DNA of 64,000 bases from Patescibacteria group bacterium (GTDB lineage: Bacteria > Patescibacteriota > Minisyncoccia > Phycocordibacterales > UBA1006). The notes beneath the pieces are model-generated. The model made no database searches, was not told where the DNA came from, and saw only the letters and a list, made by a program, of their open reading frames with translations. Location of the stretch: assembly GCA_020428585.1 (NCBI GenBank), contig JAGQMP010000005.1, forward strand, positions 6,152-70,151, read 5' to 3'. A program made the translations under genes and the position numbers. Below are positions 19,259-46,978 of the stretch, piece after piece. How positions within the stretch are numbered: the first letter of the stretch is position 1; each line of letters starts with the position of its first letter.

Positions 19259-19273
19259 GATCTAAGAAGGAAC

Positions 19274-23638: not shown

Positions 23639-23664
23639 TAATAATAGACAAGAAAAAAGCCCGA

Positions 23665-24054: not shown

Positions 24055-24148
24055 ATTCTTTTGTTTTAAAAGTTAAAAGTTCATCAACCACCATACTTCT
24101 ATCGGGAAGAGTCGTCAAATAAAAAAACACCTTGTCCGAGGTGATTTC

Positions 24149-24715
24149 TTAATTCACAATCACATGAATCGCGTCGATGATGTTCGTCGGGATCGCGTTG
24201 TGTTGGAACAGGGTCGCGCAGAGTCCTTCGGGTTCTTCATCAACATCGACAAAGAGAAAGGCGCTCTTGCCGACAAAGTCGACGCTGGTGACGGTAAGGT
24301 TGTCTTCGTCATAGTCTGGAAAATCAACATCGTCATCTTCCCCGTCAACTTCTTGGTCGACACATCCATCAAGACCAATCTCGGCGATGTTCTTGAGGTA
24401 ATAAAAGCCAAGAGTGAATGGTGCCGTTACCGCATTGATCGCCTGAGCAGCGTAAGAGGTAGTGGCAGTTCCACCTCGCGAAGAAGCACCTGACGACGAA
24501 CCTGCTTGTGCGTTTGAGGTTGCGTTCGAGAACGATTCAACGTACGGGTAATCGAGGGTGACTTCTTCACCGTTGATAATCTCGGTACGTGGGCTTGGTG
24601 CATCCGCGTCATTGCGGCGTTGCCCTTGGTTGATAAGGTAGATCCCAATGATAACAAGAATAATGGCAGCAATAATGGTTCCGATATGTTTCTTCATATG
24701 CTTTGAATATACCAT
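24149..24715 (-). CDS. Hypothetical membrane-anchored protein with acidic C-terminal region
   Basis: TM IGTIIAAIILVIIGIYLI. S/G/T-rich linker. The start may be the internal MKKHIG. Confidence 0.45.
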   Translation of the reverse strand: MVYSKHMKKHIGTIIAAIILVIIGIYLINQGQRRNDADAPSPRTEIINGEEVTLDYPYVESFSNATSNAQAGSSSGASSRGGTATTSYAAQAINAVTAPFTLGFYYLKNIAEIGLDGCVDQEVDGEDDDVDFPDYDEDNLTVTSVDFVGKSAFLFVDVDEEPEGLCATLFQHNAIPTNIIDAIHVIVN

Positions 24716-24752
24716 TTTAAGTTCAAATTACAAGTTCTCTTCTATCATCCCA

Positions 24753-24784
24753 TCATTCTTAAATTCGTACGAATTTAAGAATGA
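24753..24784. repeat. Perfect 32-bp palindrome TCATTCTTAAATTCGTACGAATTTAAGAATGA
   Basis: Checked by hand as exactly self-complementary. Confidence 0.8.
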
Positions 24785-24802
24785 TTTCCTTGTCTCACCA
24801 AA

Positions 24803-24844
24803 ATGATCTGTTCTACTATTCGATCGAATAGTAGAACAGATCAT
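24803..24844. repeat. Perfect 42-bp palindrome ATGATCTGTTCTACTATTCGATCGAATAGTAGAACAGATCAT
   Basis: Checked by hand as exactly self-complementary. Confidence 0.8.
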
Positions 24845-24849
24845 CGCAA

Positions 24850-24876
24850 TAAAAAACCCTTTGTGATGAGGGTTTT
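24850..24876 (-). terminator. Intrinsic terminator downstream of leuS (aaaccct-ttgtgatga-gggtttt)
   Basis: Hairpin with flanking A/T runs immediately after the leuS stop. Confidence 0.55.
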
Positions 24877-27800: not shown

Positions 27801-27907
27801 TTTTCCTTGCCTGCTACCTGGTTTTCCGTGCGGTAGGTCTGGTTCTCCCGCCACCAATCCTGCCATTTTTTCTCAATTTTCTGAGCGTCAAATCCCTTGT
27901 TATTCAT
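24875..27907 (-). CDS. leuS: Leucyl-tRNA synthetase carrying a ~165-aa inserted Nudix-like domain between the catalytic core and the CP1 editing domain
   Basis: HIGH-type HVGHWY. KMSKS. Editing-domain entry VFTTRADTLFGATYLVLAPEH. Insert (aa ~236-400) contains the Nudix-box-like GGIDEGKTPEETALEEVREETGY. Confidence 0.9.
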   Translation of the reverse strand: MNNKGFDAQKIEKKWQDWWRENQTYRTENQVAGKENFYALSEFAYPSGNLHVGHWYAFAVPDIYARFKRMQGYNVLYPMGFDAFGLPAENAAIKRDLDPNKWTYENMDYMKKQLTSMGASFDWSRTLATCDPSYYRWTQWMFARFFENGLVYRDVTKVNWCEHDKTILANEQVVAGACERCGNQVIQKDMPQWMMKITDFADALVDDLEKLPWDDSIKQAQREWVGRKEGSLIPFTIRETETYDVNTGPGDDAFREGQPIVERDNVVVIIEHPDKDEFLCAKWKQVDWQGFVTGGIDEGKTPEETALEEVREETGYQNPEIVQAYDRSSHGLFWHVVKEQNRKANYRIVHVKLKDLEREESSAEEQAIAEFVWVPRAEVNDFLKREDMRYPWRVVSGEDTLDQVQVFTTRADTLFGATYLVLAPEHTLVTSLKNRIANSDELDAYLTEVSKKSDLDRQQSKEKNGVELKGVEAVNPATGQPIPIWIGDYVLPNVGTGAVMAVPAHDERDCEFALKYDLPFRFVVLPSAGPVGNSRQLITTGENAFILSAGATEEKGQSQINAEWNAMYDLLGECADGYLPKGKRFSCTFEGKLINSPDFNTQTSEDARRNITDVVSGALTTTYRIRDWGISRQRYWGCPIPVVYDPEGTPHLVPDEHLPWLLPEDVDHTPDGTAPLARSEELKKRTEEIFGKGWTPEVDTMDTFVDSSWYFYRYLDNQNEDVFASKEAIDAWMPVSMYFGGAEHTTMHLLYSRFWVKALYRLGLVSHDEPYQGRLNRGLILGPDGNKMSKSKGNVIDPDEVVSHVGADTVRMYLAFIGPFNEPGSYPWDPNGVVGIRRFLERFWRLSEHIVDTESDQVTSALHKTILKVTDDIDRLKLNTAISTLMIFVNDAEKAGGISKNSYEILARLIAPFAPHLVEEWWQTAGGYDTSVHLADWPVADTSLIMNESTTIGIQINGKVRAEIIVSDDEDEDTLRDRVMALPEVVKWTEGKEVKKFIYIPGKAISLVIV

Positions 27908-27938
27908 AGCTTCTATACTACCTGAAGGGGTGGTTTTT

Positions 27939-28433
27939 TCAAAAAGATAGTTCAGCGATTTGTCTCTCTAAATCTTGAAGTTTCCCTCTATTGTGAATAA
28001 CAATCTTCGGCTCGATAATAGGCTCAAAACTGTCCTTAACCTTTAAGTATTGGTTGAAATCAGTTTTATTAATATCTTCCTTCCTCTCTAATATTCTTTG
28101 TTTAATTTGCTCATCACTAGGTCCCAAAACTTCAATAACAAAATATTTTTTCGACATACTCTTGGCTATGTCTAAAGCTCGATTTATATTTTTGCTAGAA
28201 GAGAATGTTGCATCTAAAATAACATTTTTGTTTTTTAAACTATTTTTTACTTCATTAAAAAATAAATCATAAACATGATCTATCTCCTCCTCTGAATAAG
28301 AAGGATTGGGGTACCACTTATTTCTAATTTCATTAGTTTGAAGAATAATCCCTCCAATTTTGTTATGAATAAGACGAGCAACGGTTGATTTTCCAACTGC
28401 AATATTTCCACAAACAAGAATTAACATATTCAA
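27939..28433 (-). CDS. P-loop NTPase / small-molecule kinase-like protein (AAA_33-like), in a low-GC island
   Basis: Walker A LVCGNIAVGKSTVARL. Length ~164 aa, typical of nucleotide/metabolite kinases. Confidence 0.5.
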   Translation of the reverse strand: MNMLILVCGNIAVGKSTVARLIHNKIGGIILQTNEIRNKWYPNPSYSEEEIDHVYDLFFNEVKNSLKNKNVILDATFSSSKNINRALDIAKSMSKKYFVIEVLGPSDEQIKQRILERKEDINKTDFNQYLKVKDSFEPIIEPKIVIHNRGKLQDLERQIAELSF

Positions 28434-28466
28434 ACTATACCAAAATATAAAAGAAAAATAGAATAA

Positions 28467-28495
28467 AAAACAAGAATCATTTCTTGTTTTTCGCT
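28467..28495 (-). terminator. Hairpin aaaacaagaa-tcat-ttcttgtttt overlapping the pyrG stop codon
   Basis: Perfect 10-bp stem. Confidence 0.5.
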
Positions 28496-30171
28496 GCCTT
28501 AATCAACCCCGTAAACAAAGGATGCGGGTCGAGGGGCCGTGCTTGCAGCTCCGGATGAAATTGAACGCCGACAAAGAACGGGTGGAGTTTCTGATCAAGC
28601 TCGACGATTTCGGTTAATACCCCATCAGGCGAGGTGCCTGATACATGGAAACCCTTCTCCTCGAACATCTTTTGGTATTCATTCCCGATTGTATTTAATT
28701 CATATCGGTGGCGGTGGCGTTCGCTGATTGCTGCCTTCTTGTATACCTTGCGGGCGAGGCTGCCGGGTTTCAAATTTGCGGTGTAAGATCCCAGACGCAT
28801 CGATCCGCCGTAGTCACCTTGTTTCAATTTTTCTTTCTGTTCCGACAGGATATCGATAACGGGATGATCGGTATCAGGATTCACCTCGGTCGTGTGGGCG
28901 CCTTTCAGTTTTAATACATTTCGCGCAAATTCCACCGATGCCATCTGCATACCAAGGCAAATACCAAGGAACGGAATCTTGTTCATCCTGACATATTCGA
29001 TAACCGCAAGTTTACCGTCGATGCCGGACGATCCAAACCCGCCCGGTACAATAACGCCGCCGTAATTATGTAATCGTTTTAAGTTCTTCTTTTTTTCGGT
29101 ACCTTCAAAATCTTGCGCCTGCAGCCAATCAATCTTAACACTGACACCTAGCTCGGCGCCCGAGAATTTCAACGCCTCGATCACCGATACATAAGCATCC
29201 GACAAGACAAAATCACCCGTGCCGAAATATTTACCGACGATGGCGATGCTGACCTCGCCTTGTGATTTCTTGGTTTTGTTCACAAAACGATTCCAGGCCT
29301 GGCGGTTTTTTATTCCTTTTTGGTTGCTGCGCGATTTTAGGGATAATTTACGAAGAAGTTTTTGATCAAGGTTTTCTGATACAAAATGTTCAGGAAGGTC
29401 GTAAATGCTACTAAGGTTGGGCGCTGAAATAATATCCTCATCATGCAGCATCGATGAAGTCGCAATTTTGCCGCGACGGCGATCATCCATAATACCAGGA
29501 CTGCGACCGACAATAATGTCTGGGAAGATTCCAGATTCCTGTAGAGTTCTAACGGCCTGCTGGGTTGGTTTAGTCTTCATTTCCCCTAGGGTGCCAGGTA
29601 CTGGCAGGTACGACACGAGGACAAAGGCAACATCCTGTGGCGACTGGCGTTTCATCATGCGGGCCGCCTCGAGGAAGAGGATATTTTCATACTCGCCCAC
29701 GGTACCGCCAATTTCGACGACGGTGATCTCGGCGTCTTCCTTGTCGGCTGACCGTTGTATCTGGTCGATCACGGCCAAGGGAACGTGTGGCACAACCGAT
29801 ACTGTTTTACCTCCGTAACCAAGCGAACGTTCACGGTTAATGACAGTTTGATAAATCGATCCTGTTGTCATATACGAATCACGGGTTAAGGATCGATTTA
29901 AAAATCGTTCGTAGTTTCCCATATCCTGATCAGTTTCATAGCCGTCTTCCAATACAAAGGTCTCACCGTGTTCGGTTGGGTTCATAGTACCAGCGTCGAC
30001 GTTCACATAAGGGTCGATCTTTACCGCCGATACCTCATAACCAGCGAATTGCAGAATCTTACCAATCGATGATGCGGTGATACCCTTCCCCACGCCACTC
30101 ATCACGCCACCTACGACAAAGATGTATTTTCTCGTCTTCTTTTTTTGTGTTTTCTTTTTCATAGGTCTCAT
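28477..30171 (-). CDS. pyrG: CTP synthase
   Basis: N-terminal synthetase domain YIFVVGGVMSGVGKGITASSIGKIL. C-terminal glutamine amidotransferase GICLGMQ ... HPE. Confidence 0.95.
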   Translation of the reverse strand: MRPMKKKTQKKKTRKYIFVVGGVMSGVGKGITASSIGKILQFAGYEVSAVKIDPYVNVDAGTMNPTEHGETFVLEDGYETDQDMGNYERFLNRSLTRDSYMTTGSIYQTVINRERSLGYGGKTVSVVPHVPLAVIDQIQRSADKEDAEITVVEIGGTVGEYENILFLEAARMMKRQSPQDVAFVLVSYLPVPGTLGEMKTKPTQQAVRTLQESGIFPDIIVGRSPGIMDDRRRGKIATSSMLHDEDIISAPNLSSIYDLPEHFVSENLDQKLLRKLSLKSRSNQKGIKNRQAWNRFVNKTKKSQGEVSIAIVGKYFGTGDFVLSDAYVSVIEALKFSGAELGVSVKIDWLQAQDFEGTEKKKNLKRLHNYGGVIVPGGFGSSGIDGKLAVIEYVRMNKIPFLGICLGMQMASVEFARNVLKLKGAHTTEVNPDTDHPVIDILSEQKEKLKQGDYGGSMRLGSYTANLKPGSLARKVYKKAAISERHRHRYELNTIGNEYQKMFEEKGFHVSGTSPDGVLTEIVELDQKLHPFFVGVQFHPELQARPLDPHPLFTGLIKAAKNKK

Positions 30172-30214
30172 GTTCCTGGATCCCCGCCTGCGCGAGGATG
30201 ACCAAAGTGTTCCA

Positions 30215-30262
30215 AAAGAAAACCGAGGTCGTGAAAAACCTCGGTTTAATCGTTAACTGATC
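30215..30262 (-). promoter_or_regulatory. Leader terminator-like hairpin (aaaccgagg-N11-cctcggttt + U-run) between a TATAAT box (~30283-30288) and the pyrG start. Candidate attenuator.
   Basis: Minus strand reads gTTATAATgattttt...aaaccgaggtttttcacgacctcggttttcttttgg...ATG. Confidence 0.4.
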
Positions 30263-30327
30263 GTATTGTCAGTTGTTCTCTCATAAAAATCATTATAACA
30301 AAAAATAAAAAGCACACCAAATGGGTG

Positions 30328-31092
30328 CTATTTCTGTAAATGATCCTTAATTCCCTTCACCGCTTCGAGAACTTCAATTGGCAGCATCCAGATCGTCGTG
30401 TTTGATTGGTCTGACGAGAGGTCATTCACCGCCTGGAGGGTTCGCAAATGCATTGCCCCTGGGGTCGAATTCAAGGTTCGGGCGGCCTCGGCGAGGTTTG
30501 ATGCCGCCTCGCGATCACCCTGGGCCTTGATGATAACGGCACGTTTTTCACGTTCGGCTTCAGCTTCTTTTGAGATCGTCCTCTTGAGATCATCCGGAAT
30601 AATGACATCTTTGAGTTCAAGAAGTTCAACATCAATACCCCAAGGATCGGTTTTCAGGTCGAGGTCGACCTTGATCATCTCGGCAATCTCGTTTCGTTTC
30701 TGAAGGAGCTCGTCAAGCGTTCGTTCACCCACCGCGTTACGCATCGTCGTTTGGGCTAATTGGGACACTGCGTAGCGGAAATCTTCAACTTCGATGATTG
30801 ATTTCGGAGCGTCTTTGATTTTGTAGTACACGACCGCGTTAATCTGGACGGGAATGTTATCGCGGGTGATGACTTCCTGGTTCGGAACATCAACGGTCTT
30901 GGTCCTGATGTCGACCTTGTACAGTTTTTGAACAATCGGGATAATCGGTCGCCAGCCTGGCATCCTGGTTCCAGTAAACCGTCCGAGAGTAAAGACCACG
31001 CCACGCTGATACTGGTTAATCTGCTTGATAATCGAGAAAAACAGGATGATACCTGCGATGATGATGTACCACATATACGCATATAGTAGCAC
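30328..31092 (-). CDS. SPFH/band-7 (stomatin/prohibitin-like) membrane protein
   Basis: N-terminal TM. RGVVFTLGRF...VDIRTKTVDVPNQEVITRDNIPVQINAVVYYKI, typical of the SPFH domain. Confidence 0.8.
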   Translation of the reverse strand: MLLYAYMWYIIIAGIILFFSIIKQINQYQRGVVFTLGRFTGTRMPGWRPIIPIVQKLYKVDIRTKTVDVPNQEVITRDNIPVQINAVVYYKIKDAPKSIIEVEDFRYAVSQLAQTTMRNAVGERTLDELLQKRNEIAEMIKVDLDLKTDPWGIDVELLELKDVIIPDDLKRTISKEAEAEREKRAVIIKAQGDREAASNLAEAARTLNSTPGAMHLRTLQAVNDLSSDQSNTTIWMLPIEVLEAVKGIKDHLQK

Positions 31093-31128
31093 GTTTTTCT
31101 TTACCCTGCCTGGTGTATACTTGGTAGC

Positions 31129-32586
31129 ATGACGACTGACTTAAGTGGGATCTACGACCTGATGCGGACCAAGCCAAACCGTTGGGAGAAGAACCTCCTT
31201 GAAAAAGCTTACCAGGTAGCCAAAGACGCACACGAACCGCAAAAACGATCATCTGGTGAACCATATTTTAATCATGTGTTTGCAACCGCTCGAAACCTAG
31301 CTGAATTCGGTCTTGACGCTACCACCATTGCGGCGGGATTTTTACACGATGTTATCGAAGACACGCCCGTAACCGAAGAAGAGATCAAGGAACAGTTTGG
31401 AGACGAAATCGTGTTTTTGGTGAATGGAGTCACCAAATTGGGAAAGCTCAAGTACCGCGGCCGCGAACGTCACGTTGAATCCCTGCGTAAATTCTTTATT
31501 GCAACGGCCGAAGATTTTCGCGTGGTGATCATTAAACTAGCGGATCGCCTGCACAACGTACAGACCCTTGAATTCGTAAAACCAGAGAAACGAAAGCGTA
31601 TTGCATTGGAAACGATCGAGATCTACGCTCCCCTTGCCTATCGTTTGGGAATGGGACGTCTGGTTGGAGAATTACAGGATGCGTCCTTCCCCTTTGCCTA
31701 TCCTGACGAGTATGAAATGGTCGCGAGCCTCTTAAGACAAAAGAAAAAACTGAATGAAAAATACCTCGAGAAGGTCTGGCGTAACCTCAAGACCGAAATG
31801 GCGAAACATGGGATCAAAGACATCACGACCCACCAACGGGTAAAGGGTCGCTATAGTTTATGGAAAAAACTACAGCGTAAAAACATGGATATCGAACAAA
31901 TATACGATATTGTGGCTCTGCGCGTGATTGTACCGACGGTGGATGATTGTTATCGCGTCCTCGGAATTATCCATTCGACCTGGCGACCTTTGCCTGGCCG
32001 TATCAAAGACTACATCGCCCTCCCAAAGGTGAACGGATATCAGTCCCTTCACACCACTATCTTTACTGGCGACGGTGGTATTGCCGAGATTCAAATTAGA
32101 ACCCCTGAAATGCATGAATTTGCCGAGTACGGTTTCGCAGCTCACCACGTGTACAAGAGTCGTGGTTCAACGGTCGCCGATAAACATTCCTTATCATGGT
32201 TATCAGAATTAAAAAATCTACAAGAAGACAGCGATCAGAAAAAAGACTTTTTGAAGGAATTAAAGACCGACCTCTTTAGCGATCGTATTTTCGTCTTTAC
32301 CCCACAGGGGGACGTCCTTGACCTGCCCGAGGGCGCATCAGCGATCGACTTTGCCTACACCATCCACAGCGAGATTGGTAATGCGGCCCAAGCAGCCACC
32401 ATCAATGGTAAAAATGCGGCCTTGAAAACAGTTCTCCATAGTGGCGACATCGTAGAAATTCAAACCAATAAAAAAGGTACCCCGTCGAGCAAGTGGCTAG
32501 GCTACGTCAAGACCGGTATCGCCAAGAAACACATTGAACGATATCTGAAAGAACATAGTTTGTGGAATAAATTCTTTAATAAATAA
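31129..32586 (+). CDS. rel: Short bifunctional (p)ppGpp synthetase/hydrolase, RelA/SpoT homolog (HD + synthetase + TGS; no ACT domain)
   Basis: HD motif FLHDVIEDT. Synthetase block RVKGRYSLWKKLQRK...DIVALRVIV. TGS IFVFTPQGDVLDLPEGASAIDFAYTIHSEIG. Confidence 0.85.
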   Translation: MTTDLSGIYDLMRTKPNRWEKNLLEKAYQVAKDAHEPQKRSSGEPYFNHVFATARNLAEFGLDATTIAAGFLHDVIEDTPVTEEEIKEQFGDEIVFLVNGVTKLGKLKYRGRERHVESLRKFFIATAEDFRVVIIKLADRLHNVQTLEFVKPEKRKRIALETIEIYAPLAYRLGMGRLVGELQDASFPFAYPDEYEMVASLLRQKKKLNEKYLEKVWRNLKTEMAKHGIKDITTHQRVKGRYSLWKKLQRKNMDIEQIYDIVALRVIVPTVDDCYRVLGIIHSTWRPLPGRIKDYIALPKVNGYQSLHTTIFTGDGGIAEIQIRTPEMHEFAEYGFAAHHVYKSRGSTVADKHSLSWLSELKNLQEDSDQKKDFLKELKTDLFSDRIFVFTPQGDVLDLPEGASAIDFAYTIHSEIGNAAQAATINGKNAALKTVLHSGDIVEIQTNKKGTPSSKWLGYVKTGIAKKHIERYLKEHSLWNKFFNK

Positions 32587-32603
32587 AACACCCTTGTGGT
32601 GTT

Positions 32604-33239
32604 TTATTTTAAGAAATATTTTGTATAACCCATATCGACAAGTTTTTGCCAGGCATCGAGCACCTCATCAGGAACATCTTGTTCTATCTGAAAACCAAGT
32701 TTTGGATACTCAACAATTCTCTGGAGATCGCCGACCATCAGATTAGTAAACTTTTCTTTAAAAGATCTATCTTGAGAATAATCTTCATAGGAAATAGCCG
32801 GCGAAGTAACGAAAATTCTGGGCTCAGGCCATTGCTTTTTAAAGGTTGCATAGGTTCGACGCTCCATATAAGGCTTTTGAACAAGAATAAAAGAATTGAA
32901 ATCAAAATTGAGATTTTTTAACAACTCTTTGGTAAAGGTAATATTTTCACCTGTATTCGAGGCTTTCTTCTCTAAAATAATTTTGTCCTCTGGGACACCT
33001 TTTCTGACTAAAATATCCCTAAATTTTTCAGCTTCACTTAAATCAAAATCCTTAATTTTACCAACCCCGCCAGAACAAATTACATACGGCGCAAATCCCT
33101 GATGATAAAGTTCTGCAGCTCTTTTTGGTGTACGCAAATCGGTAGATCCTAATGCAAAAATCGCATCCACTTTCTCTAATTTATGATGTAATAACATATA
33201 GTCCCAAATAATTTTTGCGTAGTGATCTACATCCTTCAT
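32604..33239 (-). CDS. DUF218 / YdcF-like (ElyC/SanA family) protein
   Basis: LGSTDLRTPKRAAELYHQGFAPYVICSGGVG. The start is placed at the internal MKDVDH because the ORF track's N-terminal 79 aa are an out-of-frame overlap with parB. Confidence 0.65.
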   Translation of the reverse strand: MKDVDHYAKIIWDYMLLHHKLEKVDAIFALGSTDLRTPKRAAELYHQGFAPYVICSGGVGKIKDFDLSEAEKFRDILVRKGVPEDKIILEKKASNTGENITFTKELLKNLNFDFNSFILVQKPYMERRTYATFKKQWPEPRIFVTSPAISYEDYSQDRSFKEKFTNLMVGDLQRIVEYPKLGFQIEQDVPDEVLDAWQKLVDMGYTKYFLK

Positions 33240-33274
33240 GATCTTAGTATAACAAAAACCAGCCAAAGCTGATT

Positions 33275-34606
33275 TTATCCAAACAATCGCCCAAAGATTC
33301 CCTTCCTTTCTGGCGGCCGACCGTAATGAACATTTTGCGGTGGATACTGACGACGAGGATCTGGTTGGTAGTAAGGTACATCTTGCCGAACTTGGTTTTG
33401 ATAACCAGGTTGCGGGTAGGTTGGTTCGGGGCGTGGCGGCTCTTGCTTCGCCGGTTCGTCCTCTGGAATCACCCATTCGTCAGACGCAGAGTCGTTTTCA
33501 TGACGCATCTCTTCTTTCTCGTATTCTGGCCCTGAATTAGGTTCGTTATCGTCCCGTATGTCAGACAGGTTGGGATCAGGTTGGATTTCAGGAACTCTGA
33601 CATCTTCTTTAACTTCTTCGAAGATTTCGATATCTTCAATCACCTCTTCGGCCCGAGGTTCAGGATCATATGAATCTTCTTCTTGCGGTGCCTTGGCGAC
33701 AAGTGGTGTGGTCGAGGTGATGACCTCGCTCGCGCTTGGTCTTCCTTTCAGGTAGGAATCCATCATACTGTTCTCGCGTTCAACCTTTTGCATCGAGGCT
33801 AAAATGGTCTCGAGGTCTTTGATCGTAAAGTAATCAATGGTGATTTGCCCTCCGTTTTCTTTGGGTTCGATGTGAACCCGAGTGCCAAGGTTCTCGGACA
33901 GTTGTTTCTCGTAATTACGAATCGCGGGATCCACGACGAACTCTTTTTTACGGACGCGGTCTTGGGCGATTTTACGCGCGACCTTTTCAGCATCACGAAC
34001 CGATAACTTTTTGACCATGATCTCTTTGTACAAGGTATTTTGCTCGTCAGGACGATCAGTCAACATGAGAAGCGGCCTCGTGTGGCCTTCGGTAATACGT
34101 CCGTCCATGAGGCCTCTTTTGATATCGTCGGGCAGGGACAGGAGGCGTAGCGTGTTTGATACGTAGACACGGCTCTTTCCCATTCTCTTTCCAATTTCAA
34201 CATGGGTGAGGCCGAACTCTTTGTAGAGTTGTTCAAAGGCGAGTGCACGGTCAATCGGATTGAGGTCTTCACGTTGAAGGTTTTCAATGATAGCGAGTTC
34301 CAGCTTTACCTTGTCGTCAGTTTCGCGCCTGATGATGACGGGTACCTGGGCGAGGCCAGCAATTTTTGACGCGCGCAATCGTCGTTCTCCGGCGATCAAT
34401 TCATAACTGACGTCCATACCGTTACCGTCGGGTCGTAATTCTTCTTTTCGGGTCACGACGAGTGGTTGCAAGACGCCATACTGACGAATTGAATCAGCGA
34501 GGTCTTCTAGGGCCTTTGGTTCAAAGTCACGACGCGGTTGGAAGGGGTTTGGGTTTACCTTTTCGGTCTCGACCCAAAAGATTGAGTTGTTTTGATACTC
34601 TGACAT
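33275..34606 (-). CDS. parB: ParB/Spo0J chromosome partitioning protein with a ~150-aa acidic and P/Q/Y-rich C-terminal extension
   Basis: ParB box VLQPLVVTRK...LIAGERRLRASKIAGLAQVPVIIR; HTH region. C-terminal PEPTYPQPGYQNQVRQDVPYYQPDPRRQYPPQNVHYGRPPE. Confidence 0.85.
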   Translation of the reverse strand: MSEYQNNSIFWVETEKVNPNPFQPRRDFEPKALEDLADSIRQYGVLQPLVVTRKEELRPDGNGMDVSYELIAGERRLRASKIAGLAQVPVIIRRETDDKVKLELAIIENLQREDLNPIDRALAFEQLYKEFGLTHVEIGKRMGKSRVYVSNTLRLLSLPDDIKRGLMDGRITEGHTRPLLMLTDRPDEQNTLYKEIMVKKLSVRDAEKVARKIAQDRVRKKEFVVDPAIRNYEKQLSENLGTRVHIEPKENGGQITIDYFTIKDLETILASMQKVERENSMMDSYLKGRPSASEVITSTTPLVAKAPQEEDSYDPEPRAEEVIEDIEIFEEVKEDVRVPEIQPDPNLSDIRDDNEPNSGPEYEKEEMRHENDSASDEWVIPEDEPAKQEPPRPEPTYPQPGYQNQVRQDVPYYQPDPRRQYPPQNVHYGRPPERKGIFGRLFG

Positions 34607-34736
34607 GGTAAAAAACTACGTGAATTATGAGGTTATTGTACCATAATAGAAGGTGGCATGAAAAAGATTAGATTCCTTGCCGATGCGCAGCCTTTTTAGT
34701 AGTATCAACCTGTTGCCAAAGAAATGATTGGCATGA

Positions 34737-34821
34737 GCCGGAGTGGCGGAATTGGTAGACGCGTGCGACTCAAAATCGCATGTCTTCGGGCGTGTGGGTT
34801 CAAGTCCCACCTCCGGCACAA
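34737..34821 (+). tRNA. tRNA-Leu (anticodon CAA) with long variable arm
   Basis: Acceptor GCCGGAG/CTCCGGC. D-arm TGGCGGAATTGGTAGACGCG. Anticodon loop CTCAAAA. Long variable stem tgtcttcgggcgtgtg. T-arm GGTTCAAGTCCCAC. Confidence 0.85.
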
Positions 34822-34823
34822 AA

Positions 34824-34853
34824 ATCTCTTTAATTAAAAGGAGATTTTTTGAC
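34824..34853 (+). terminator. Hairpin aaatctc-tttaattaaaag-gagattt + T-run after tRNA-Leu
   Basis: Read directly from the sequence. Confidence 0.5.
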
Positions 34854-35035
34854 GGAGAAAAATGTCCCTGCGGACATTTTGTGTGGGACTTGAAAAGCGC
34901 AGGTATATGTTTGTTTGAATCCACCGAAGGTGGATGAAAGGCAAACATACCGAGCTGGGGTCGCGAAAAATTTCCGTCAGGAAATTTATTTGTGACCAAG
35001 TCCCTGTCTTGAATTACTGATATAATGAAGAAGGT

Positions 35036-35506
35036 ATGTACTCCCTTAGATTAGTTAAAAAAGATGATCTCGAAACACTGTCAAAAATCTTCTCAGATTC
35101 TTTTACGAATATATCTCCTGATAAACCATGGGAACAAAAATATGCTCTCGAATATCTAAAATATTGGTTTGAAAAACAACCAGATATGTTCCTCTGTGCT
35201 TGTGATGATAATGATAATCTAGTCGGGGCCATTGCGACCAACATAAAACCTTGGAGGACGGGAATGCGTTGTACCGATGGGGTCGTCTTTGTCGATATTA
35301 ATTTTCAAAAGAGAGGAATCGCCACTCTATTACTTAAAGAGATTATCAGCAAGGCAAAGGATAAATACGGGGTCGAAATATTCGAAGCTATCACTTTTTC
35401 TGAGAAAGAATTTCCTTTGACCTGGTATGAAAAAATAGGCTTATCAGTGGACAAGGGTGCTGTCGTGATTAAGGGAAACTGTAAAGATCTTCTAGAAAAA
35501 CTTTAG
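35036..35506 (+). CDS. GNAT family N-acetyltransferase
   Basis: Acetyl-CoA-binding motif VFVDINFQKRGIATLLLKEII. Confidence 0.7.
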   Translation: MYSLRLVKKDDLETLSKIFSDSFTNISPDKPWEQKYALEYLKYWFEKQPDMFLCACDDNDNLVGAIATNIKPWRTGMRCTDGVVFVDINFQKRGIATLLLKEIISKAKDKYGVEIFEAITFSEKEFPLTWYEKIGLSVDKGAVVIKGNCKDLLEKL

Positions 35507-35605
35507 AAATAATATTTAGTCCCTTCCCTTTTCCCCTCAGAGAGGAGTATACTGATACCTAGTAGCCTCTTTGCTACGATTGTTAGGCATTTAATCTTAC
35601 AAACT

Positions 35606-36079
35606 ATGTACGAAACAGAATTCTCGGGTGGTATCGCTATCCTCTATTTGGTTGTCATCGTCGTTACGATCGCTGGCATGTGGCGCGTGTTCCAAAAAGC
35701 AGGCCGCAAAGGATGGGAGGCGATCATCCCCATCTATAACCTCTTTATTATTCAAAAAATCATCGGCAAGCCGTGGTACTGGGTGATCCTCATGATGATT
35801 CCTTACATTGGCATTATCTGGACCATTTGGTCAACCAACCTCATGTCAAAGTCATTCGGCAAGAGTGAAGGCTTTACGATCGGTATGATCATCCTGCCGT
35901 TTATCTTTTATCCGATCCTTGGTTTTGGTAAGGCACAGTACCAAGGAGCGATGGGATCAAAAGATATGGATATGGATCCTTCGACAAACTCAGGACAAGG
36001 AATGGCGGAAAACTCATCATGGCCGAGCGATGATAACGCTGATATGAATGACCGTAGGGACGAAATCGATAATGGGTAA
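35606..36079 (+). CDS. Small multi-pass membrane protein (DUF5684-like)
   Basis: Three or four hydrophobic segments. WRVFQKAGRKGWEAIIPIYNLF is typical of this family. Confidence 0.5.
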   Translation: MYETEFSGGIAILYLVVIVVTIAGMWRVFQKAGRKGWEAIIPIYNLFIIQKIIGKPWYWVILMMIPYIGIIWTIWSTNLMSKSFGKSEGFTIGMIILPFIFYPILGFGKAQYQGAMGSKDMDMDPSTNSGQGMAENSSWPSDDNADMNDRRDEIDNG

Positions 36080-36081
36080 GA

Positions 36082-36110
36082 AAAAAGCAGCCTGGGTGGC
36101 TGCTTTATTT
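36082..36110 (+). terminator. Intrinsic terminator aagcagcc-tgggt-ggctgctt + T-run
   Basis: Read directly from the sequence. Confidence 0.7.
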
Positions 36111-36692
36111 TGGTACGTAAATTTTTTTAAATTGGTAAATTTCAAGTTCCTTTTTAGAATTAAGATGAATACCATTATTGGATTCTGATTCATCAATACC
36201 ATTACTTCCAATCATCAGAGTATTGTAAACAAAAGGTTCTAAATGTACACCATAGATACCTCTAATCCTTCTACAAAGTAATTCTCTAGTAGGTAAAGGT
36301 AGTTCAAAGATCTGAACAATACTATAACGATAATAGATTGAATCATTGCGTCCACTAGGATAACTCTTTTTTAATAAGAAGAAATCACGAGTGGGTAAAA
36401 ATATAGGATGGAAGTCATTATTAAGCCAAGACCTAAAAACTATATGAGCATAATAATTAATTTCATTCAGTTCCAAAGATCTATTAAGAAAAAAATAGTT
36501 GCCTAATCCAACAAGTGGAATTTTTTGATTCATTTTCTTTTTCATCACAATGACGTCCTCTATATCCTCGTCAACAACATATTGGTAATTTTGAAATAGA
36601 AATTCTTGTACAGGATCAGTGAGATAATCTATCTCATATAAAACCATACCGGGAAATCTATTATCTGCAGCAGCAAGTTTTGTTTTAATCAT
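36105..36692 (-). CDS. Hypothetical protein in a low-GC island
   Basis: 195-aa ORF, AT-rich. No motif recognised. Confidence 0.35.
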   Translation of the reverse strand: MIKTKLAAADNRFPGMVLYEIDYLTDPVQEFLFQNYQYVVDEDIEDVIVMKKKMNQKIPLVGLGNYFFLNRSLELNEINYYAHIVFRSWLNNDFHPIFLPTRDFFLLKKSYPSGRNDSIYYRYSIVQIFELPLPTRELLCRRIRGIYGVHLEPFVYNTLMIGSNGIDESESNNGIHLNSKKELEIYQFKKIYVPK

Positions 36693-36767
36693 TATATGTT
36701 TTTTATATTTTCCAATATTCTACAACATTCGCAAAAAATAAAAAGCCTTGCGGCTTGTTATTTAAAT

Positions 36768-37451
36768 CTATTCAGCATCGTCTGTTGTCTCGACGATAAT
36801 GGTTTCTTCATAGATCATGACGTTCTCGGCAGGTGCTGATTCAGCAACGCCAGTACCAAGAGTTCGATAAAGCCGTGCCCACACAAGGTACGTTACAGGG
36901 ATCGTAATCGCAAGACCAATCACCAAGGCAATCAACCCAAAGAGATTAAAGAATAGCACCACGATAAACAACCAAAAGATTTTCCATCGATTGCCAGCTG
37001 TTAGTTCCCAGCTCTTTTTAAATGATTCAAAAATACCCTCGCCTTCTTCTGCAATCAGATACTGGGCAAACATAAATCCAACCAACGCGACGAGTCCCGG
37101 AATGACGAGGAGTACCATACCAAGACCAACCATCGCGCCGTACAACAAGGCAACCACGAGGAAGTAAACGAAATGTGATATTGATTTCGCTCCGTGGAAG
37201 ATATCTTCAATCTTGCGAGGTTTCCCATCAACAATATTCAACAACAGGCGAATAAACCCAAGGCTGAGGTACATCTGGAGGAGCCACCCGAGAAGCCCGA
37301 TAATTGAGGCTCCGTGAAATCCATGACCCATCTTGCCAAGCATTCCTACCAAAGCAAAGATAATGCCAATAAGGATCAATATCCCCCAGTTCTGTTTGTA
37401 ATCATTCCAGGCAGCCCGAAAGAGGTCGCCAATACTAAAGCTTTTCTTCAT
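36768..37451 (-). CDS. Multi-pass membrane protein (DUF975-like)
   Basis: Repeated hydrophobic segments. N-terminal FRAAWNDYKQNW motif. Confidence 0.5.
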   Translation of the reverse strand: MKKSFSIGDLFRAAWNDYKQNWGILILIGIIFALVGMLGKMGHGFHGASIIGLLGWLLQMYLSLGFIRLLLNIVDGKPRKIEDIFHGAKSISHFVYFLVVALLYGAMVGLGMVLLVIPGLVALVGFMFAQYLIAEEGEGIFESFKKSWELTAGNRWKIFWLFIVVLFFNLFGLIALVIGLAITIPVTYLVWARLYRTLGTGVAESAPAENVMIYEETIIVETTDDAE

Positions 37452-37505
37452 ACCCTGCCATTATATCAAAATTTGAACTAGAGGTCTCACTCCAACATAA
37501 ACGGT

Positions 37506-37533
37506 ATTCTAGTATTCGTACGAATACTAGAAT
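37506..37533. promoter_or_regulatory. Perfect 28-bp palindrome ATTCTAGTATTCGTACGAATACTAGAAT downstream of arsR and upstream of the membrane-protein gene. Candidate operator.
   Basis: Checked by hand. Confidence 0.6.
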
Positions 37534-37536
37534 ACT

Positions 37537-37878
37537 TTATCCTGGTAAAATATTTTGATCGGTAAGCTTTTTGATAAATTGGGCTAATAATCGACCTTCA
37601 TTGCTAAGTCTATGATGTACGGAGTTACCTTCATATTTTTTGTAAACCAATCCTAGAGTATGAAGCTTTTTAACGTGGAAAGAAATGTTCTTAAAATCAC
37701 CCCCCACAAGTTGATTAATTTGGTCTAAATTCATACCAGGTTGTTCTAGTAGAACAAAAAGAATATGGGCACGGAAATGATTAGCCCCTCCTTGCAATAT
37801 AGTCTGAATTTCAGGAAATGATTTTGGTGCTATGATTCGACTCTTTCGTTCTAGATTTTTTTGTTGGGGTGATTTCAT
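37537..37878 (-). CDS. ArsR/SmtB-family winged-helix transcriptional regulator
   Basis: RAHILFVLLEQPGMNLDQINQLVGGDFKNISFHVKKLHTLGLV matches the ArsR HTH pattern. Confidence 0.65.
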   Translation of the reverse strand: MKSPQQKNLERKSRIIAPKSFPEIQTILQGGANHFRAHILFVLLEQPGMNLDQINQLVGGDFKNISFHVKKLHTLGLVYKKYEGNSVHHRLSNEGRLLAQFIKKLTDQNILPG

Positions 37879-37904
37879 GCCTCACTATTATAGCCTTTTA
37901 TTTT

Positions 37905-37942
37905 CTTCTATTCTAGTATTCGTACGAATACTAGAATAGAAG
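37905..37942. promoter_or_regulatory. Perfect 38-bp palindrome CTTCTATTCTAGTATTCGTACGAATACTAGAATAGAAG in the arsR/cysS divergent promoter region. Contains the same 28-bp core as 37506-37533.
   Basis: Checked by hand. Confidence 0.6.
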
Positions 37943-37955
37943 TTGAAATGTAGTT

Positions 37956-37964
37956 TGGTATAAT
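37956..37964 (+). promoter_or_regulatory. Extended -10 element TGGTATAAT for cysS
   Basis: tttgGTATAATttgggtt, ~19 nt before the cysS ATG. Confidence 0.45.
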
Positions 37965-37982
37965 TTGGGTTATAAAAGTATT

Positions 37983-39365
37983 ATGAAGCTCTATAACAGT
38001 CTCACAAAAGAGAAAGATTACGTGGAAACGATCACCCCTGGCAAGGTGTCAATGTACCACTGTGGGCCGACCGTCTACGATCATGTGCATGTGGGAAACC
38101 TGCGTTCCTTTATACTGGGCGACCTTTTGAGGCGTAGTTTTGCTTATCTGGGTTACGAGGTATTGCAGGTGATGAATATCACTGATGTTGGTCATCTGGT
38201 GTCTGATGGGGATGAGGGTGACGACAAGATGACCAAAGCCTTGAAACGTGAAGGTAAAGAGGTAAGCGTTGAAAACATGCTATCAATCGCACGAATCTAC
38301 GAGGCAAGTTTTCTGAAAGATCTCGCTGATTTGAACGTCCTACTACCCCATCATCTACCTCGAGCATCTGAACATATCGATGATGATATTGCGATCATTA
38401 AAAAATTAGAAGAACGTGGGTTTACCTATACCACCAGTGATGGTGTGTACTTTGATACCTCAAAGATGTCTGATTACGGCAAACTTGGAGGTCTCAACCA
38501 GGACGATGGCGAAAGTCGAATCAGTGGCAATGCCGAAAAACATCAGCCTGCCGATTTCGCCCTATGGAAATTTGATCAGAACCTTGGCTGGGATTCACCC
38601 TGGGGTCAAGGATTTCCTGGTTGGCATATCGAATGTTCTGGTATGGGTATGCGTTATTTAGGAGAGCAATTTGATATTCACACGGGTGGCAGCGATTTAA
38701 AGAGTGTTCATCATAACAACGAAATTGCTCAATCCGAATGTGCGACCGGGGTCTGTCCATATGTTAAATACTGGGTTCACGGCGAGATGCTTAATTTTGG
38801 TGGAGCAAAGCTATCAAAATCAACCGGTGGAAACATTACCCTGCAAAGCCTCAAAGAACGTGAGATTGAACCCTTGGCCTATCGGTATCTGGTTTTGCAA
38901 ACGCATTATCGTAGTCCTATGAGCTTTACCTACGAAGGCCTCAAGGCCACTGAAACCGGCCTCAAACGTATTCGCAAAGAGGTTATCAAATTACGCGAAC
39001 TCGCAGGTGGTACCCATGGAACCGTCAGCGGAAATAGCAAAGTTCAATTCACTGAAAAAATCGAAGACGACCTCAATATGCCGCAGGCCCTAGCAGTTTT
39101 TCACGATGTTTTGAAATCTGACCTTGATCCGGCTGATAAACTGGTTACGTTGTATGATTTTGATCGTGTCCTTGGTCTTGGGCTTGAATATTACGAAGAA
39201 GCATCATTTGAAATTTCAGAAGAAATCCAACATCTTCTCAATCAGCGAAAAGAAGCCCGGGATGCAAAAGATTTTGAGGCTTCAGATCGTATTCGAGACC
39301 AACTGTCAGATATGGGATACACGGTGTCTGATAGTGATGGTGAACAGAGGATAACAAAAAAATAA
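37983..39365 (+). CDS. cysS: Cysteinyl-tRNA synthetase
   Basis: MYHCGPTVYDHVHVGNLRSF (HIGH). KLSKS. Zinc-ligand cysteines. The ORF-track start at 37965 is a TTG inside the -10 box; the ATG at 37983 is preferred. Confidence 0.9.
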   Translation: MKLYNSLTKEKDYVETITPGKVSMYHCGPTVYDHVHVGNLRSFILGDLLRRSFAYLGYEVLQVMNITDVGHLVSDGDEGDDKMTKALKREGKEVSVENMLSIARIYEASFLKDLADLNVLLPHHLPRASEHIDDDIAIIKKLEERGFTYTTSDGVYFDTSKMSDYGKLGGLNQDDGESRISGNAEKHQPADFALWKFDQNLGWDSPWGQGFPGWHIECSGMGMRYLGEQFDIHTGGSDLKSVHHNNEIAQSECATGVCPYVKYWVHGEMLNFGGAKLSKSTGGNITLQSLKEREIEPLAYRYLVLQTHYRSPMSFTYEGLKATETGLKRIRKEVIKLRELAGGTHGTVSGNSKVQFTEKIEDDLNMPQALAVFHDVLKSDLDPADKLVTLYDFDRVLGLGLEYYEEASFEISEEIQHLLNQRKEARDAKDFEASDRIRDQLSDMGYTVSDSDGEQRITKK

Positions 39366-43294: not shown

Positions 43295-45202
43295 TTATTT
43301 ATCATCAGAAGCATCTTCAGCCTCTACATCAACGGTTTCTCCGTCTTTAGGCCCCTCGGCTTCGCTCGGGGCGGCGTCAGAAGCCGCGGCTTCTGACGCC
43401 GCCTTTTGCTGCATGATTTCGCCGATCTTTTGCATAGATTCTGACAATTCAGACGTTTTCTTTTCAATTGCGTCTTTATCGTCGCCGTCTTTGACTTCTT
43501 TCAAAGCCTTGAGTGCTTCTTCGATCTTGGTCTTGGTTTCATCGTCTACCTGGTCGCCATAATCTTTCAATGACTTTTCAGCCGTAAAGATCATGGAATC
43601 GGCCATATTGCGTACGTCGATCAATTCTTTCTTTTTCTTGTCTTCTTCGGCGTGTTCTTCGGCATCCCGTTGCATCTTTTTAATCTCATCGTCAGAGAGT
43701 TTTGAACCTCCTTCGATGCGGATAGAGTTTTCTTTGCCGGTTGATTTATCTTTAGCTGATACTTCGAGGATTCCGTTTGCATCAACGTTAAAAGTCACCT
43801 CTACCTGCGGTACGCCGCGTGGTGCTGGTGGAATACCCTCGAGAATAAATCGGCCCAAAGATTTATTATCGGTTGCCATAGGTCGTTCACCTTGAACGAT
43901 GTGGATTTCTACCGAAGTCTGATTATCAGCGGCAGTCGAGAATACTTGTGATGCCTCAGCAGGAATCGTGGTGTTCTTTTCAACCAGTTTGGTCGCAACA
44001 CCACCCATGGTTTCAATCGAGAGTGACAGTGGAATAACATCGAGAAGAAGTACATCTTTCACGTCTCCTTGCATGACCCCTCCTTGCAGCGCAGCACCCA
44101 ATGCCACGACTTCGTCAGGGTTGATTGATTTGTTTGGTTCTTTACCGAAGATTTCTTTTACCAGTTCGGTGATCTTTGGCATACGCGTTTGACCTCCGAC
44201 GAGGATAATCTCGTCAATGTCCTTGGCATCCATGCCAGCTGACTTTAGTACGTCTTTGGTGATTTCGATTGATTTATCAAGGAATGGTGCGGCCAGTTCT
44301 TCGAGTTTTGCTCGAGACAGCTTCATCAAGAGGTGCTGTGGTCCTTCATCCCCAGAAGCGATAAATGGAATGTTAATTTCAGTTTCGGTCGTGTTCGATA
44401 ATTCATGTTTTGCCTTTTCGGCTGCTTCTTTGAGGCGCTGAAGGGCCAAAACGTCTTTGGTGACATCGATGCCTGATTCTTTTTTGTATTCAGTACCAAT
44501 CCAGTCGATGATTGCACGGTCAATATCTTCACCACCCATGTGGGCGTCTCCGCCGGTTGCTTTTACTTCGACCACATCGTCTCCCACCTCGAGGACTGAC
44601 ACATCAAAGGTTCCACCTCCAAAGTCATACACCACGATTTTCTCGTCTTTCTTTTTATTGAACCCATAGGCAAGAGCCGCGGCGGTTGGTTCGTTGATGA
44701 TACGCTTTACCTCAAGTCCTGCGATCTTACCTGCGTCTTTGGTTGCCTGACGTTGAGCATCATCAAAGTAGGCCGGCACGGTGATGACGGCTTCGGTGAT
44801 TGTTTCACCTGTTTTTTCTTCAACATCGGTTTTGATCTTTTTCAAAATCATCGCCGAGATTTCTTCGGGACTGTAATCCTTGTCATTCATTTCGATGACC
44901 ACCTTGTCTCCGTCCCCTGCCTTGATCGTGAAAGGAGAATTTTTCAGATCCTTCTGAATGGCATCGTCACTGAACTTGTGACCCATGTACCGCTTAACCC
45001 CAAAGATCGTGTTCTTTGGGTTGGTCACCGCCTGACGTTTCGCTAAAAGACCGACGAGGCGGTCGCCGTTCTTGCCAATCGCGGCAATCGAAGGGGTCGT
45101 CCGATTTCCTTCGTTGTTTTCAATAATTTTTGGCTGTCCGCCTTCTACGAAGGCAACGGCTGAGTTGGTAGTTCCTAGGTCAATTCCAATAATTTTGCTC
45201 AT
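43295..45202 (-). CDS. dnaK: Chaperone DnaK (Hsp70)
   Basis: [23 protein letters not shown]. Full-length Hsp70. Confidence 0.97.
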
Positions 45203-45934: not shown

Positions 45935-46516
45935 ATGAGCCATAAACCTCAAAAAAAGAGCCTCCAAGAGCTGATCCTTGGCCGTCTCGCCCGCTCTCGG
46001 GCTTCACGACAAGATGACGTTGTTGAATACCTCGAAGCCGTGATTGAAGAAATAGATGGTAAGAGCCGCAAGGTGAAACCCCGCTACGTCATCAATCGCG
46101 CCATCAAAAAAATGGTCGATGATAATCTGTTATCTGAACACGAGACCGAACAATCGTCGTTCTTATCTCTGACCTCATCAGGTAGGCAAAAATTACGCAG
46201 TATTAAGCTATCATCAACCAGTCACCTGGTATCAACAACCTGGGATGGATACTGGCGTATGGTGATTGTCGATATTCCTGATAATCGAAAGAAAGATCAA
46301 GACGCGATTCGATACCTGTTAAAGAAGGCTCAATTTGTGCAAATCAAACCATCGGTATGGATTAGCCCCTACCCCCTTGAACACCTGATGATCAACATGA
46401 AAGAAGATATGGGATTTGCTGACGAGGTGATGGTCGTCGTCACCAATAAATTGGATTCCCGAACTGAGGCGGCGTTGGTAGAAAAATTTGCAGGGGAAGC
46501 AAAAAAAGAAGGCTAA
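45935..46516 (+). CDS. Putative transcriptional regulator (PaaX-like: N-terminal wHTH-like region plus a C-terminal domain with a Cas2-like sequence pattern), divergent from grpE-dnaK
   Basis: WRMVIVDIPDNRKKDQDAIRYLLKKAQFVQIKPSVWISP is similar to the PaaX C-terminal domain. Confidence 0.35.
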   Translation: MSHKPQKKSLQELILGRLARSRASRQDDVVEYLEAVIEEIDGKSRKVKPRYVINRAIKKMVDDNLLSEHETEQSSFLSLTSSGRQKLRSIKLSSTSHLVSTTWDGYWRMVIVDIPDNRKKDQDAIRYLLKKAQFVQIKPSVWISPYPLEHLMINMKEDMGFADEVMVVVTNKLDSRTEAALVEKFAGEAKKEG

Positions 46517-46858: not shown

Positions 46859-46978
46859 AAACGATAAAAACAGGATGAAGGGTAAGGCAAAATGCGCACG
46901 AATTTGCGAGCGGTAGCAACCTACCGTGAACAAATTCGTGCGCATTTTAACGCAACAATTCGTCTGTTTTTATCGTTT
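46859..46978. repeat. 120-bp nested inverted repeat: outer arms aaacgataaaaacag / ctgtttttatcgttt, inner arms aaaatgcgcacgaatttg / caaattcgtgcgcatttt, central hairpin cggtag-caac-ctaccg. The right outer arm overlaps the rpsI stop codon.
   Basis: Arms checked by hand as perfect complements, separated by a symmetric 15 x 15-nt internal loop. Confidence 0.7.

Follow-up and report, generated by a model that had tools for sequence, protein, structure and literature searches.

An ArsR/SmtB-type regulator gene bracketed by perfect palindromes, its probable operators, in a genome of the Patescibacteria

INTRODUCTION

Repressors of the ArsR/SmtB family bind imperfect 12-2-12 inverted repeats that overlap their own promoters. 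HlyU, NolR, PagR and SdpR are non-metal ArsR-type proteins of about 90 to 110 amino acids (aa) that bind DNA without a metal signal and are commonly autoregulated, and we know of none among these four whose operators bracket its own gene or overlap its stop codon. Here we describe a 64,000-nucleotide stretch of DNA from a Patescibacteria group bacterium (GenBank assembly GCA_020428585.1, contig JAGQMP010000005.1, positions 6,152 to 70,151 of the forward strand), hereafter the window, in which the gene of a divergent ArsR/SmtB-type winged-helix regulator lies between two copies of the same perfect palindrome. ArsR-type regulators that act on their own genes through operators are already known; what appear to be new are the architecture of the bracketed gene, its spread in the Patescibacteria, the paralogue variants, the housekeeping targets and the perfect palindromes that extend themselves.

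The Patescibacteria, or Candidate Phyla Radiation (CPR), encode very few transcription factors, and to our knowledge almost nothing is known of transcriptional control in this group. Since its members are mostly uncultivated, CPR regulons can be inferred only from sequence.

RESULTS

The regulator gene occupies positions 37537 to 37878 of the window on the reverse strand and encodes a protein of 113 aa. The 28-mer ATTCTAGTATTCGTACGAATACTAGAAT is present in exactly two exact copies, at 37506 to 37533 and 37910 to 37937, confirming the preliminary description of this DNA, which had noticed an identical 28-bp palindrome on both sides of the gene. The two cores are spaced 404 bp apart; no third match was found in the window at three or fewer mismatches, and 100 dinucleotide-preserving shuffles gave 0 matches, so that none is expected by chance. 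On the promoter side the core sits, as had been reported, in a perfect 38-bp palindrome (37905 to 37942), the putative 5′ operator, located between the −10 boxes of the divergent regulator and cysS genes. For the downstream copy, the putative 3′ operator, the position given earlier was correct and the length was too short, the perfect palindrome extending over 32 bp (37504 to 37535) and beginning 1 nt beyond the TAA stop codon of the regulator. The window contains six perfect palindromes of at least 20 bp, compared with 0 in shuffled sequence.

Two further sites were found in the window: site A (24752 to 24785), a perfect 34-bp palindrome, ATCATTCTTAAATTCGTACGAATTTAAGAATGAT, and site B (24803 to 24844), a perfect 42-bp palindrome, ATGATCTGTTCTACTATTCGATCGAATAGTAGAACAGATCAT, with the core TTCTACTATTCGATCGAATAGTAGAA. 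None of the four sites is assigned to a strand. All four share the motif TTCT-N3-ATTCG-N2-CGAAT-N3-AGAA and agree with it at 18 of 18 specified positions, N3 being TAA in site A. The next-best position in the 64 kb has 4 mismatches, and the four copies are all intergenic, at gene starts or ends; the half-site TTCT-N3-ATTCG was observed 4 times versus 0.4 expected.

The sites were then placed relative to promoters, whose transcription start sites were deduced from sequence, all promoter distances resting on them. The gene for cysteinyl-tRNA synthetase, cysS (37983 to 39365, forward strand), is divergent from the regulator gene, and its extended −10 element TGgTATAAT (37956 to 37964, forward strand) is the extended −10 box that had been noted beside the palindrome; the −10 box of the regulator gene, TATAAT, is at 37887 to 37892 on the reverse strand and is followed by 8 nt and the ATG. 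Relative to the start sites, the 5′ palindrome is centred at about −44 for the regulator and about −47 for cysS, and therefore it would cover both −35 regions. Its geometry, 13-2-13 over the regulator's own −35 region, fits the 12-2-12 type of inverted repeat, and cysS is predicted to be a likely co-regulated target. The gene context described earlier (regulator stop codon, DUF975-like gene and divergent cysS) was borne out by open reading frame (ORF) and family annotation. The DUF975/UPF0259-like membrane-protein gene (36768 to 37451, reverse strand) lies 3′ of the second operator and is a possible target, its adjacency being peculiar to this genome. It has an extended −10 element, TGaTATAAT (37460 to 37468, reverse strand), followed by 8 nt and the ATG, and the centre of the 3′ palindrome is about 57 nt upstream of that −10 box.

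Sites A and B are located between the leuS terminator and the gene of a 188-aa membrane-anchored protein without a family match (24149 to 24715, reverse strand), which is downstream of both. The true start of this gene is probably the ATG at 24697, judged by the TGgTATATT that precedes it by 8 nt; the centre of site A is about 60 nt upstream of this −10 box, and site B lies 55 bp further upstream. The layout (TGn)TATAAT-8 nt-ATG, without Shine-Dalgarno spacing, thus recurs at three genes (37879 to 37892, 37452 to 37468 and 24698 to 24714). Because a TATAAT-like box is followed after 8 nt by the ATG, this layout suggests leaderless mRNAs for the regulator, DUF975 and 188-aa genes, and perhaps commonly in this genome.

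The protein had been labelled ArsR family, a label that profile homology and fold support and that its direct scores do not reach. Against Pfam HTH_5 (PF01022) it scored 17.8 bits (cut-off, 22) and against NCBIfam NF033788 34.5 bits (cut-off, 55), whereas canonical CPR relatives pass both, with 39 and 71.5 bits, respectively. An hhalign comparison of the window-clade alignment with the canonical CPR ArsR alignment gave a probability of 95.6% (E = 1e-8) over 87 columns. Searched against the PDB, a profile of six close homologues matched CadC (8e-7) and ArsR (1e-4) as well as HlyU, and the canonical CPR family profile matched best the non-metal ArsR-type regulators (HlyU, E = 3e-14), with AspA also matched. 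An AlphaFold2 model of the regulator (predicted local distance difference test score, pLDDT, 75.7) has helices at residues 22-28, 33-45, 51-58, 65-74 and 93-107 and strands at 78-83 and 86-91; the order H-H-H-H-H-E-E-H is that of ArsR/SmtB proteins (alpha1-alpha2-alpha3-alphaR-beta1-beta2-alpha5) with an extra N-terminal helix. Using this model, Foldseek retrieved SmtB, CadC, CzrA, SqrR, BigR and HlyU with E values of about 1e-3 to 1e-4 and AspA at rank 3, and MarR-type folds scored about as well as ArsR/SmtB folds. The 113 residues include no cysteine, the C-terminal helix (93-107) has no histidine, and the alpha3N and alpha5 sites are absent. With neither cysteine nor a histidine in the last helix, the protein has no known metal or thiol sensor site. 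A word search returned only five homologues, all from Patescibacteria or Paceibacteria, and HMMER run in full against 1.84 billion representatives gave 148 clusters, nearly all of proteins of 85 to 125 aa.

A comparison of orthologous loci, which the preliminary description had proposed, revealed that orthologous regulators do carry flanking palindromes, usually on both sides. In L001 to L004 (65% protein identity) the 5′ palindrome is perfect over 38 bp and the 3′ palindrome over 40 bp (48 bp with one mismatch); in L005 (69%) the 5′ copy is perfect over 22 bp and the 3′ copy spans 34 bp with one mismatch; and in L006 (69%) the 5′ copy spans 32 bp with one mismatch and the 3′ side retains a decayed remnant only. 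The 3′ copy of L005 is recognisable over its inner 22 to 34 bp only and has 5 mismatches to the 18-base pattern. The palindrome centre is CGCG on both sides in L001 to L004, compared with GTAC in the window. Every orthologous locus (65 to 69% protein identity) has cysS in divergent orientation to the regulator. The DNA around the palindromes has diverged, and an alignment of the cysS/regulator intergenic region from four lineages has the palindrome as its sole long conserved block.

On the other side of the regulator the gene varies: in relatives it is rplU, tRNA-Gln or another gene and not DUF975. The 3′ copy, which had been taken as the control site of the membrane-protein gene, is instead a fixture of the regulator gene. 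In the window, rplU is found at 18218 to 18550, now 19 kb from the regulator; therefore, a rearrangement has moved the two genes apart, and the regulator has kept its 3′ palindrome. Compared with the order regulator-rplU-recR-dnaB of L001 and L005, about 19 kb (18551 to 37503) intervenes in the window, holding leuS and genes for a secreted protein of 1244 aa, for the 188-aa protein (along with sites A and B) and for DUF5684, GNAT and DUF975 proteins. The rearrangement breakpoint adjoins the long 3′ palindrome of the regulator.

A degenerate motif with 18 fixed bases was scanned through 596 Gb of reference genomes, one genome per species. The scan yielded at least 119 loci, compared with about 9 expected by chance; Patescibacteria-type metagenome-assembled genomes (MAGs) account for about 110, and the consensus was tATTCTCTAATTCGCGCGAATTAGAGAATa. 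The candidate-phylum names of these MAGs include Kaiser-, Sung-, Uhr-, Taylor-, Vogel-, Jorgensen-, Nomura-, Giovannoni-, Lipton- and Wolfe-bacteria, among others. Wherever two sites are separated by 290 to 435 bp, a small canonical ArsR-type gene (86 to 104 aa) lies between them, and its product carries the helix LKALANRRRLAILRYL...LSFKATSKHL. ArsR-type genes (86 to 125 aa) near the motif are typically bracketed, with one copy on the promoter and the other at or over the stop codon. Among 40 non-redundant regulator genes, the motif is present on both sides in 26 at two or fewer mismatches over the 18 bases and in 30 at four or fewer, and a few more have a shared variant palindrome on each side. 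The centre of the 5′ site lies 16 to 75 nt ahead of the ATG of these 40 genes, and that of the 3′ site most often 5 nt past the stop codon, where the arm ATT CTC TAA encodes a C-terminal Ile-Leu-stop; in the canonical family the stop codon of the regulator is thus contained in a palindrome arm. About two thirds of the motif loci have no regulator nearby. A search of the full-text literature on regulators of CPR, Patescibacteria and Parcubacteria, and for the motif string ATTCGCGCGAAT, found no description of the motif or the regulator. The module of a regulator between two palindromes recurs across the Patescibacteria and is apparently undescribed.

Matches outside the CPR were rejected as real sites. 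Those labelled as Gemmatimonadota, Zixibacteria, Verrucomicrobia, Dehalococcoidia and Paenibacillus fall within ORFs, two labelled Acidobacteriota have no regulator nearby, and the non-CPR total is about the number expected by chance. Twelve loci (L015, L024, L038, L041, L047, L054, L058, L059, L080, L088, L102 and L122) have a canonical CPR regulator or the full motif despite other labels; the motif-bearing MAGs labelled Gammaproteobacteria, Bdellovibrionales, Clostridia or Omnitrophota are probably mislabelled bins, one of which includes an 876-kb contig.

A second scan, of metagenomes and with a TTCTA-type variant of the motif, returned 46 loci, including one (L163) 99.7% identical to the window. 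The N3 bases of the sites vary with the recognition helix of the adjacent regulator: AGT with FKNISFH (window, L001, L005 and L006), ACT or AAT with FKNISTH or IKNIHSH (L137, L139 and L147), AAC with FKV.SVH or IKVCSEH (L131, L149 and L159) and CTA with FKATSKHL (canonical family). This N3 covariation is attributed to paralogue specificity. The same core variant is found on either side of a gene, as with AATTCAATTGAATT twice in L026 and GTTCTTAAGAAC twice in L093, and one contig (L074) carries two adjacent paralogues, one with a canonical site and the other bracketed by ATTCTGCAGAAT-type sites. Site B of the window is a related case: its core is identical to the operator flanking a paralogous regulator in L139, a locus sharing with the window its metagenome sample of origin only. 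The L139 paralogue is 54% identical to the window regulator over 66 aa and its gene is bracketed by palindromes with the site B core, so that site B may belong to this second regulator, judging by the shared core. In L044 (4900/5256) and L107 (2961/3264), the non-palindromic central dinucleotides of paired operators are reverse complements of each other (CC/GG and TG/CA); one operator looks like an inverted copy of the other, which hints at concerted evolution or copying between sites.

Site centres are depleted in coding sequence: 154 of the 191 fall outside ORFs of at least 100 aa, although such ORFs hold 73% of bases (p = 1e-54). In close relatives of the window a separate −10 box is located 22 to 46 nt from the site centre, which places the site over the −35 region. 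Genes starting right after sites include Mur ligases, dnaX, tsaE, ychF, argS and frr, and in the wider clade of the window tmk, an M29 aminopeptidase gene, tyrS, adk, dgkA and ruvX. A Pfam analysis of 71 putative targets found housekeeping functions of various kinds, with no one pathway among them. A tRNA-Gln(UUG) gene comes directly after the canonical regulator, 66 to 90 nt past its 3′ site, in three Patescibacteria loci unrelated to one another (L014, 793 to 864; L051, 6161 to 6232; L019, 3152 to 3223).

The arms of the sites are also symmetric beyond the motif. In 184 non-redundant sites, mirror symmetry exceeded the expectation from base composition out to ±20 nt; arm concordance at positions 15 to 20 was 76, 60, 56, 49, 45 and 44%, versus 47 to 28% expected, and it reached background at position 21. 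Positions 16 to 20 show almost no base preference despite this symmetry, and internal palindromes reach 48 to 54 bp (L031, L146, L169 and L171). We infer that this outer symmetry arose as the perfect core seeded hairpin-templated (template-switch) correction and extension, a process in keeping with the gradual decay of the symmetry with distance; selection favouring cruciforms or hairpins is a possible source as well. In L151, an 80-bp palindrome centred on the motif (3529 to 3608) stops exactly where the contig does; it was excluded as an assembler fold-back artefact brought about by the palindrome, and it counsels caution with contig ends in genomes of this sort.

Several other features of the window were recorded. 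A gene for a PaaX_M-domain regulator-like protein (45935 to 46516) is divergent from grpE-dnaK, an arrangement kept in L001 and L005, and is a candidate heat-shock regulator in a lineage in which no hrcA was noticed. A perfect 34-bp G+C-rich palindrome, GGCGGCGTCAGAAGCCGCGGCTTCTGACGCCGCC, is found within the 3′ end of dnaK (43370 to 43403), where it encodes a low-complexity tail; another of 34 bp, TAACAAAAAACCACCTATAGGTGGTTTTTTGTTA, at the rplU 3′ end (18187 to 18220) looks like a bidirectional intrinsic terminator. Between rpsI and a membrane-protein gene (94 to 122 aa), an imperfect inverted repeat of 28 nt (46889 to 46948; 86% complementary, 4-nt loop) contains CACGAATTTG/CAAATTCGTG.

DISCUSSION

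We consider it probable that the palindromes are the operators of the ArsR/SmtB-type winged-helix protein encoded between them, and that this protein is autoregulated, does not sense metals and serves a wider regulon. The sequence, conservation, covariation and positions of the sites are what the analysis shows. The protein would probably engage the 13-2-13 inverted repeat in dimeric form, with one dimer or two on its four ATTC/GAAT quarter-sites, which are spaced 8 bp apart. Occupancy of the 5′ operator would set the regulator's own level, with autorepression as the predicted sign, and probably cysS expression too. The 3′ operator would most likely control or insulate transcription into the downstream gene, or cooperate with the 5′ site. 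Paralogous regulators would each read their own variant of N3 and the central bases, the additional copies found ahead of housekeeping genes would make up a regulon, and sites A and B would put one more gene into the regulator network.

The preliminary description had read both sites as operators of this regulator. Its reading of the 5′ site as autoregulatory, and shared with cysS, is retained as a prediction that gains good comparative support from the conserved intergenic block, the copies on both sides and the variants that follow the regulator subfamily; its assignment of the 3′ site to the membrane-protein gene was given up.

Several points weigh against this interpretation. The window protein falls short of the curated Pfam and NCBIfam cut-offs. 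Outside the paralogue cases, phylogeny confounds the way in which motif and regulator vary together. No common functional theme was found among the targets. Symmetry out to ±20 nt without base conservation exceeds what a small dimer should read. Finally, the 3′ palindrome and site A are located at about −66 and −69 from their respective start sites as deduced here, beyond the core promoter, where simple occlusion would be inadequate. With respect to layout, operator spacings calculated from the site positions range from 292 to 447 bp and show no clear 10.5-bp phasing by eye.

A bolder generalisation can be put forward only tentatively, and we hold it to be somewhat doubtful: that CPR bacteria use minimal, sensor-less ArsR-type proteins as global housekeeping regulators, each with its own variant of a 26- to 28-bp palindrome and two bracketing operators, the second overlapping the stop codon, with arms serving as −10 boxes and with palindromes made perfect and lengthened, to as much as 48 to 54 bp, by template switching, which would account for the mirror symmetry out to ±20 nt. 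If true, the regulated classes would include aminoacyl-tRNA synthetases, nucleotide kinases, Mur ligases, dnaX, rplU and tRNA-Gln.

Could the palindrome itself act as a promoter element in both directions, or be bound by a different conserved factor, with the ArsR-type gene merely one target? On both strands its outer arms, nTAGAAT, look like −10 hexamers. Of 42 canonical 5′ sites, 12 have the extended −10 element TGGTAGAAT as the arm nearer the gene, and only two have the corresponding variant as the distal arm; the ATG often follows 6 to 10 nt past that arm, and many targets lack a nearby regulator. An operator arm can thus double as a promoter in canonical loci, as far as the arm sequences indicate. 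However, the inner ATTCG-N2-CGAAT dyad has no role in recognition by RNA polymerase, the window clade has separate TATAAT boxes 22 to 57 nt from the centre, and the paralogue-specific variants are most simply explained by recognition by the adjacent regulator. We regard this explanation as unlikely. LexA, HrcA and other known boxes were considered and dropped, since the adjacent covarying gene is of the ArsR type.

The palindromes might instead act as RNA hairpins, the 3′ copy terminating or stabilising the regulator mRNA and the other copies serving as attenuators or processing sites, an explanation that we find quite unlikely. If transcribed, the 3′ copy would fold strongly into a hairpin of 14 to 16 bp (−26 kcal/mol, z = −4.9), a consensus scan called it terminator-like, and arm covariation without conservation resembles stem covariation. 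The 5′ copy, however, has divergent promoters on its two sides, a setting in which a terminator would serve no transcript, and T-tracts are not enriched after the 3′ sites: 43 of them have a T fraction of 0.28 in the following 12 nt, versus 0.24 for 5′ sites. The stems are AT-rich, an Rfam scan of 36500 to 38500 returned sub-threshold miRNA-like hairpin matches only and no family, and ATTCG and TTCT are conserved as specific sequence and not as mere pairing. A classical intrinsic terminator was rejected, as only 4 of the 14 stem pairs are G-C, there is no U-tract and the 5′ copy is away from a gene end.

That the palindromes are a dispersed repeat resembling repetitive extragenic palindromic (REP) sequences or miniature inverted-repeat transposable elements (MITEs), or the terminal inverted repeats of a small mobile cassette that carries the regulator, spread in either case at the DNA level and not kept up as binding sites, is very improbable. 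It would account for the loci, about two thirds, without a nearby regulator, for paired copies that share unconstrained bases (the central dinucleotide is the same in 9 of 16 non-CG cases), for symmetry reaching beyond the conserved core and for the breakpoint beside the 3′ copy in the window. Against it, the core, in contrast to REPs, which are species-specific, is shared by Patescibacteria lineages that are very far apart; there are no conserved flanks or target duplications; the cysS-regulator-palindrome synteny is stable at 65 to 69% protein identity; there are just 4 copies in 64 kb, all 5′ or 3′ intergenic; and the variants follow the regulator subfamily. The preliminary description had offered a mobile palindromic element as an alternative, and the stable synteny, few copies and regulator-linked variants speak against it. 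It had also held that many dispersed copies unrelated to regulators would point to a repeat element; such copies do exist, but they did not lead to that conclusion, because they are intergenic, stand before housekeeping genes and are conserved over very distant lineages, and thus fit a regulon and not a repeat.

A target of, or a sequence shaped by, a restriction-modification system, also raised earlier, can be dismissed as extremely improbable: the centres hold palindromic tetramers typical of restriction sites (GTAC, GATC and CGCG), but they vary freely between sites and genomes while the conserved part is the non-restriction-like arms, and no restriction-modification gene was noticed by the sites among annotated ORFs, the whole window not having been screened.

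With the palindromes taken as operators of the encoded regulator, the locus points to a regulator-operator pair kept across many CPR lineages, with a clear and testable motif. The paralogue-specific variants would amount to a natural specificity code, with targets among essential housekeeping genes, and a 28-bp oligonucleotide and the 113-aa protein suffice for a direct in vitro test. The long perfect palindromes also form a natural data set on how palindromes are created and maintained in small, possibly repair-limited genomes.

How does this locus compare with known systems? Like AspA, the ArsR-like centromere-binding protein of plasmid pNOB8, which binds a palindrome by its own gene, the window regulator is a small winged-helix protein; unlike AspA, it has no adjacent parA or parB, its context is chromosomal, and its sites occur at many promoters. 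The arrangement of two operator copies about 290 to 450 bp apart, one at the promoter and one downstream, recalls lac O1/O2, where an auxiliary operator lies about 400 bp downstream and repression works by looping, a likeness of layout only, the spacings here showing no helical phasing by eye. HlyU and BigR use cysteines, of which the window regulator has none. With SmtB, CzrA and CadC the regulator shares a small winged helix with the same order of elements, arms of about 13 bp around a 2-bp centre, and a predicted operator that overlaps its own promoter beside a divergent gene. It differs from them in lacking cysteine as well as the alpha3N and alpha5 metal sites and in scoring below the curated cut-offs; its palindromes are perfect and much longer (28 to 48 bp), a second copy at the 3′ side is the rule, and its putative targets are housekeeping genes in place of efflux and detoxification genes.

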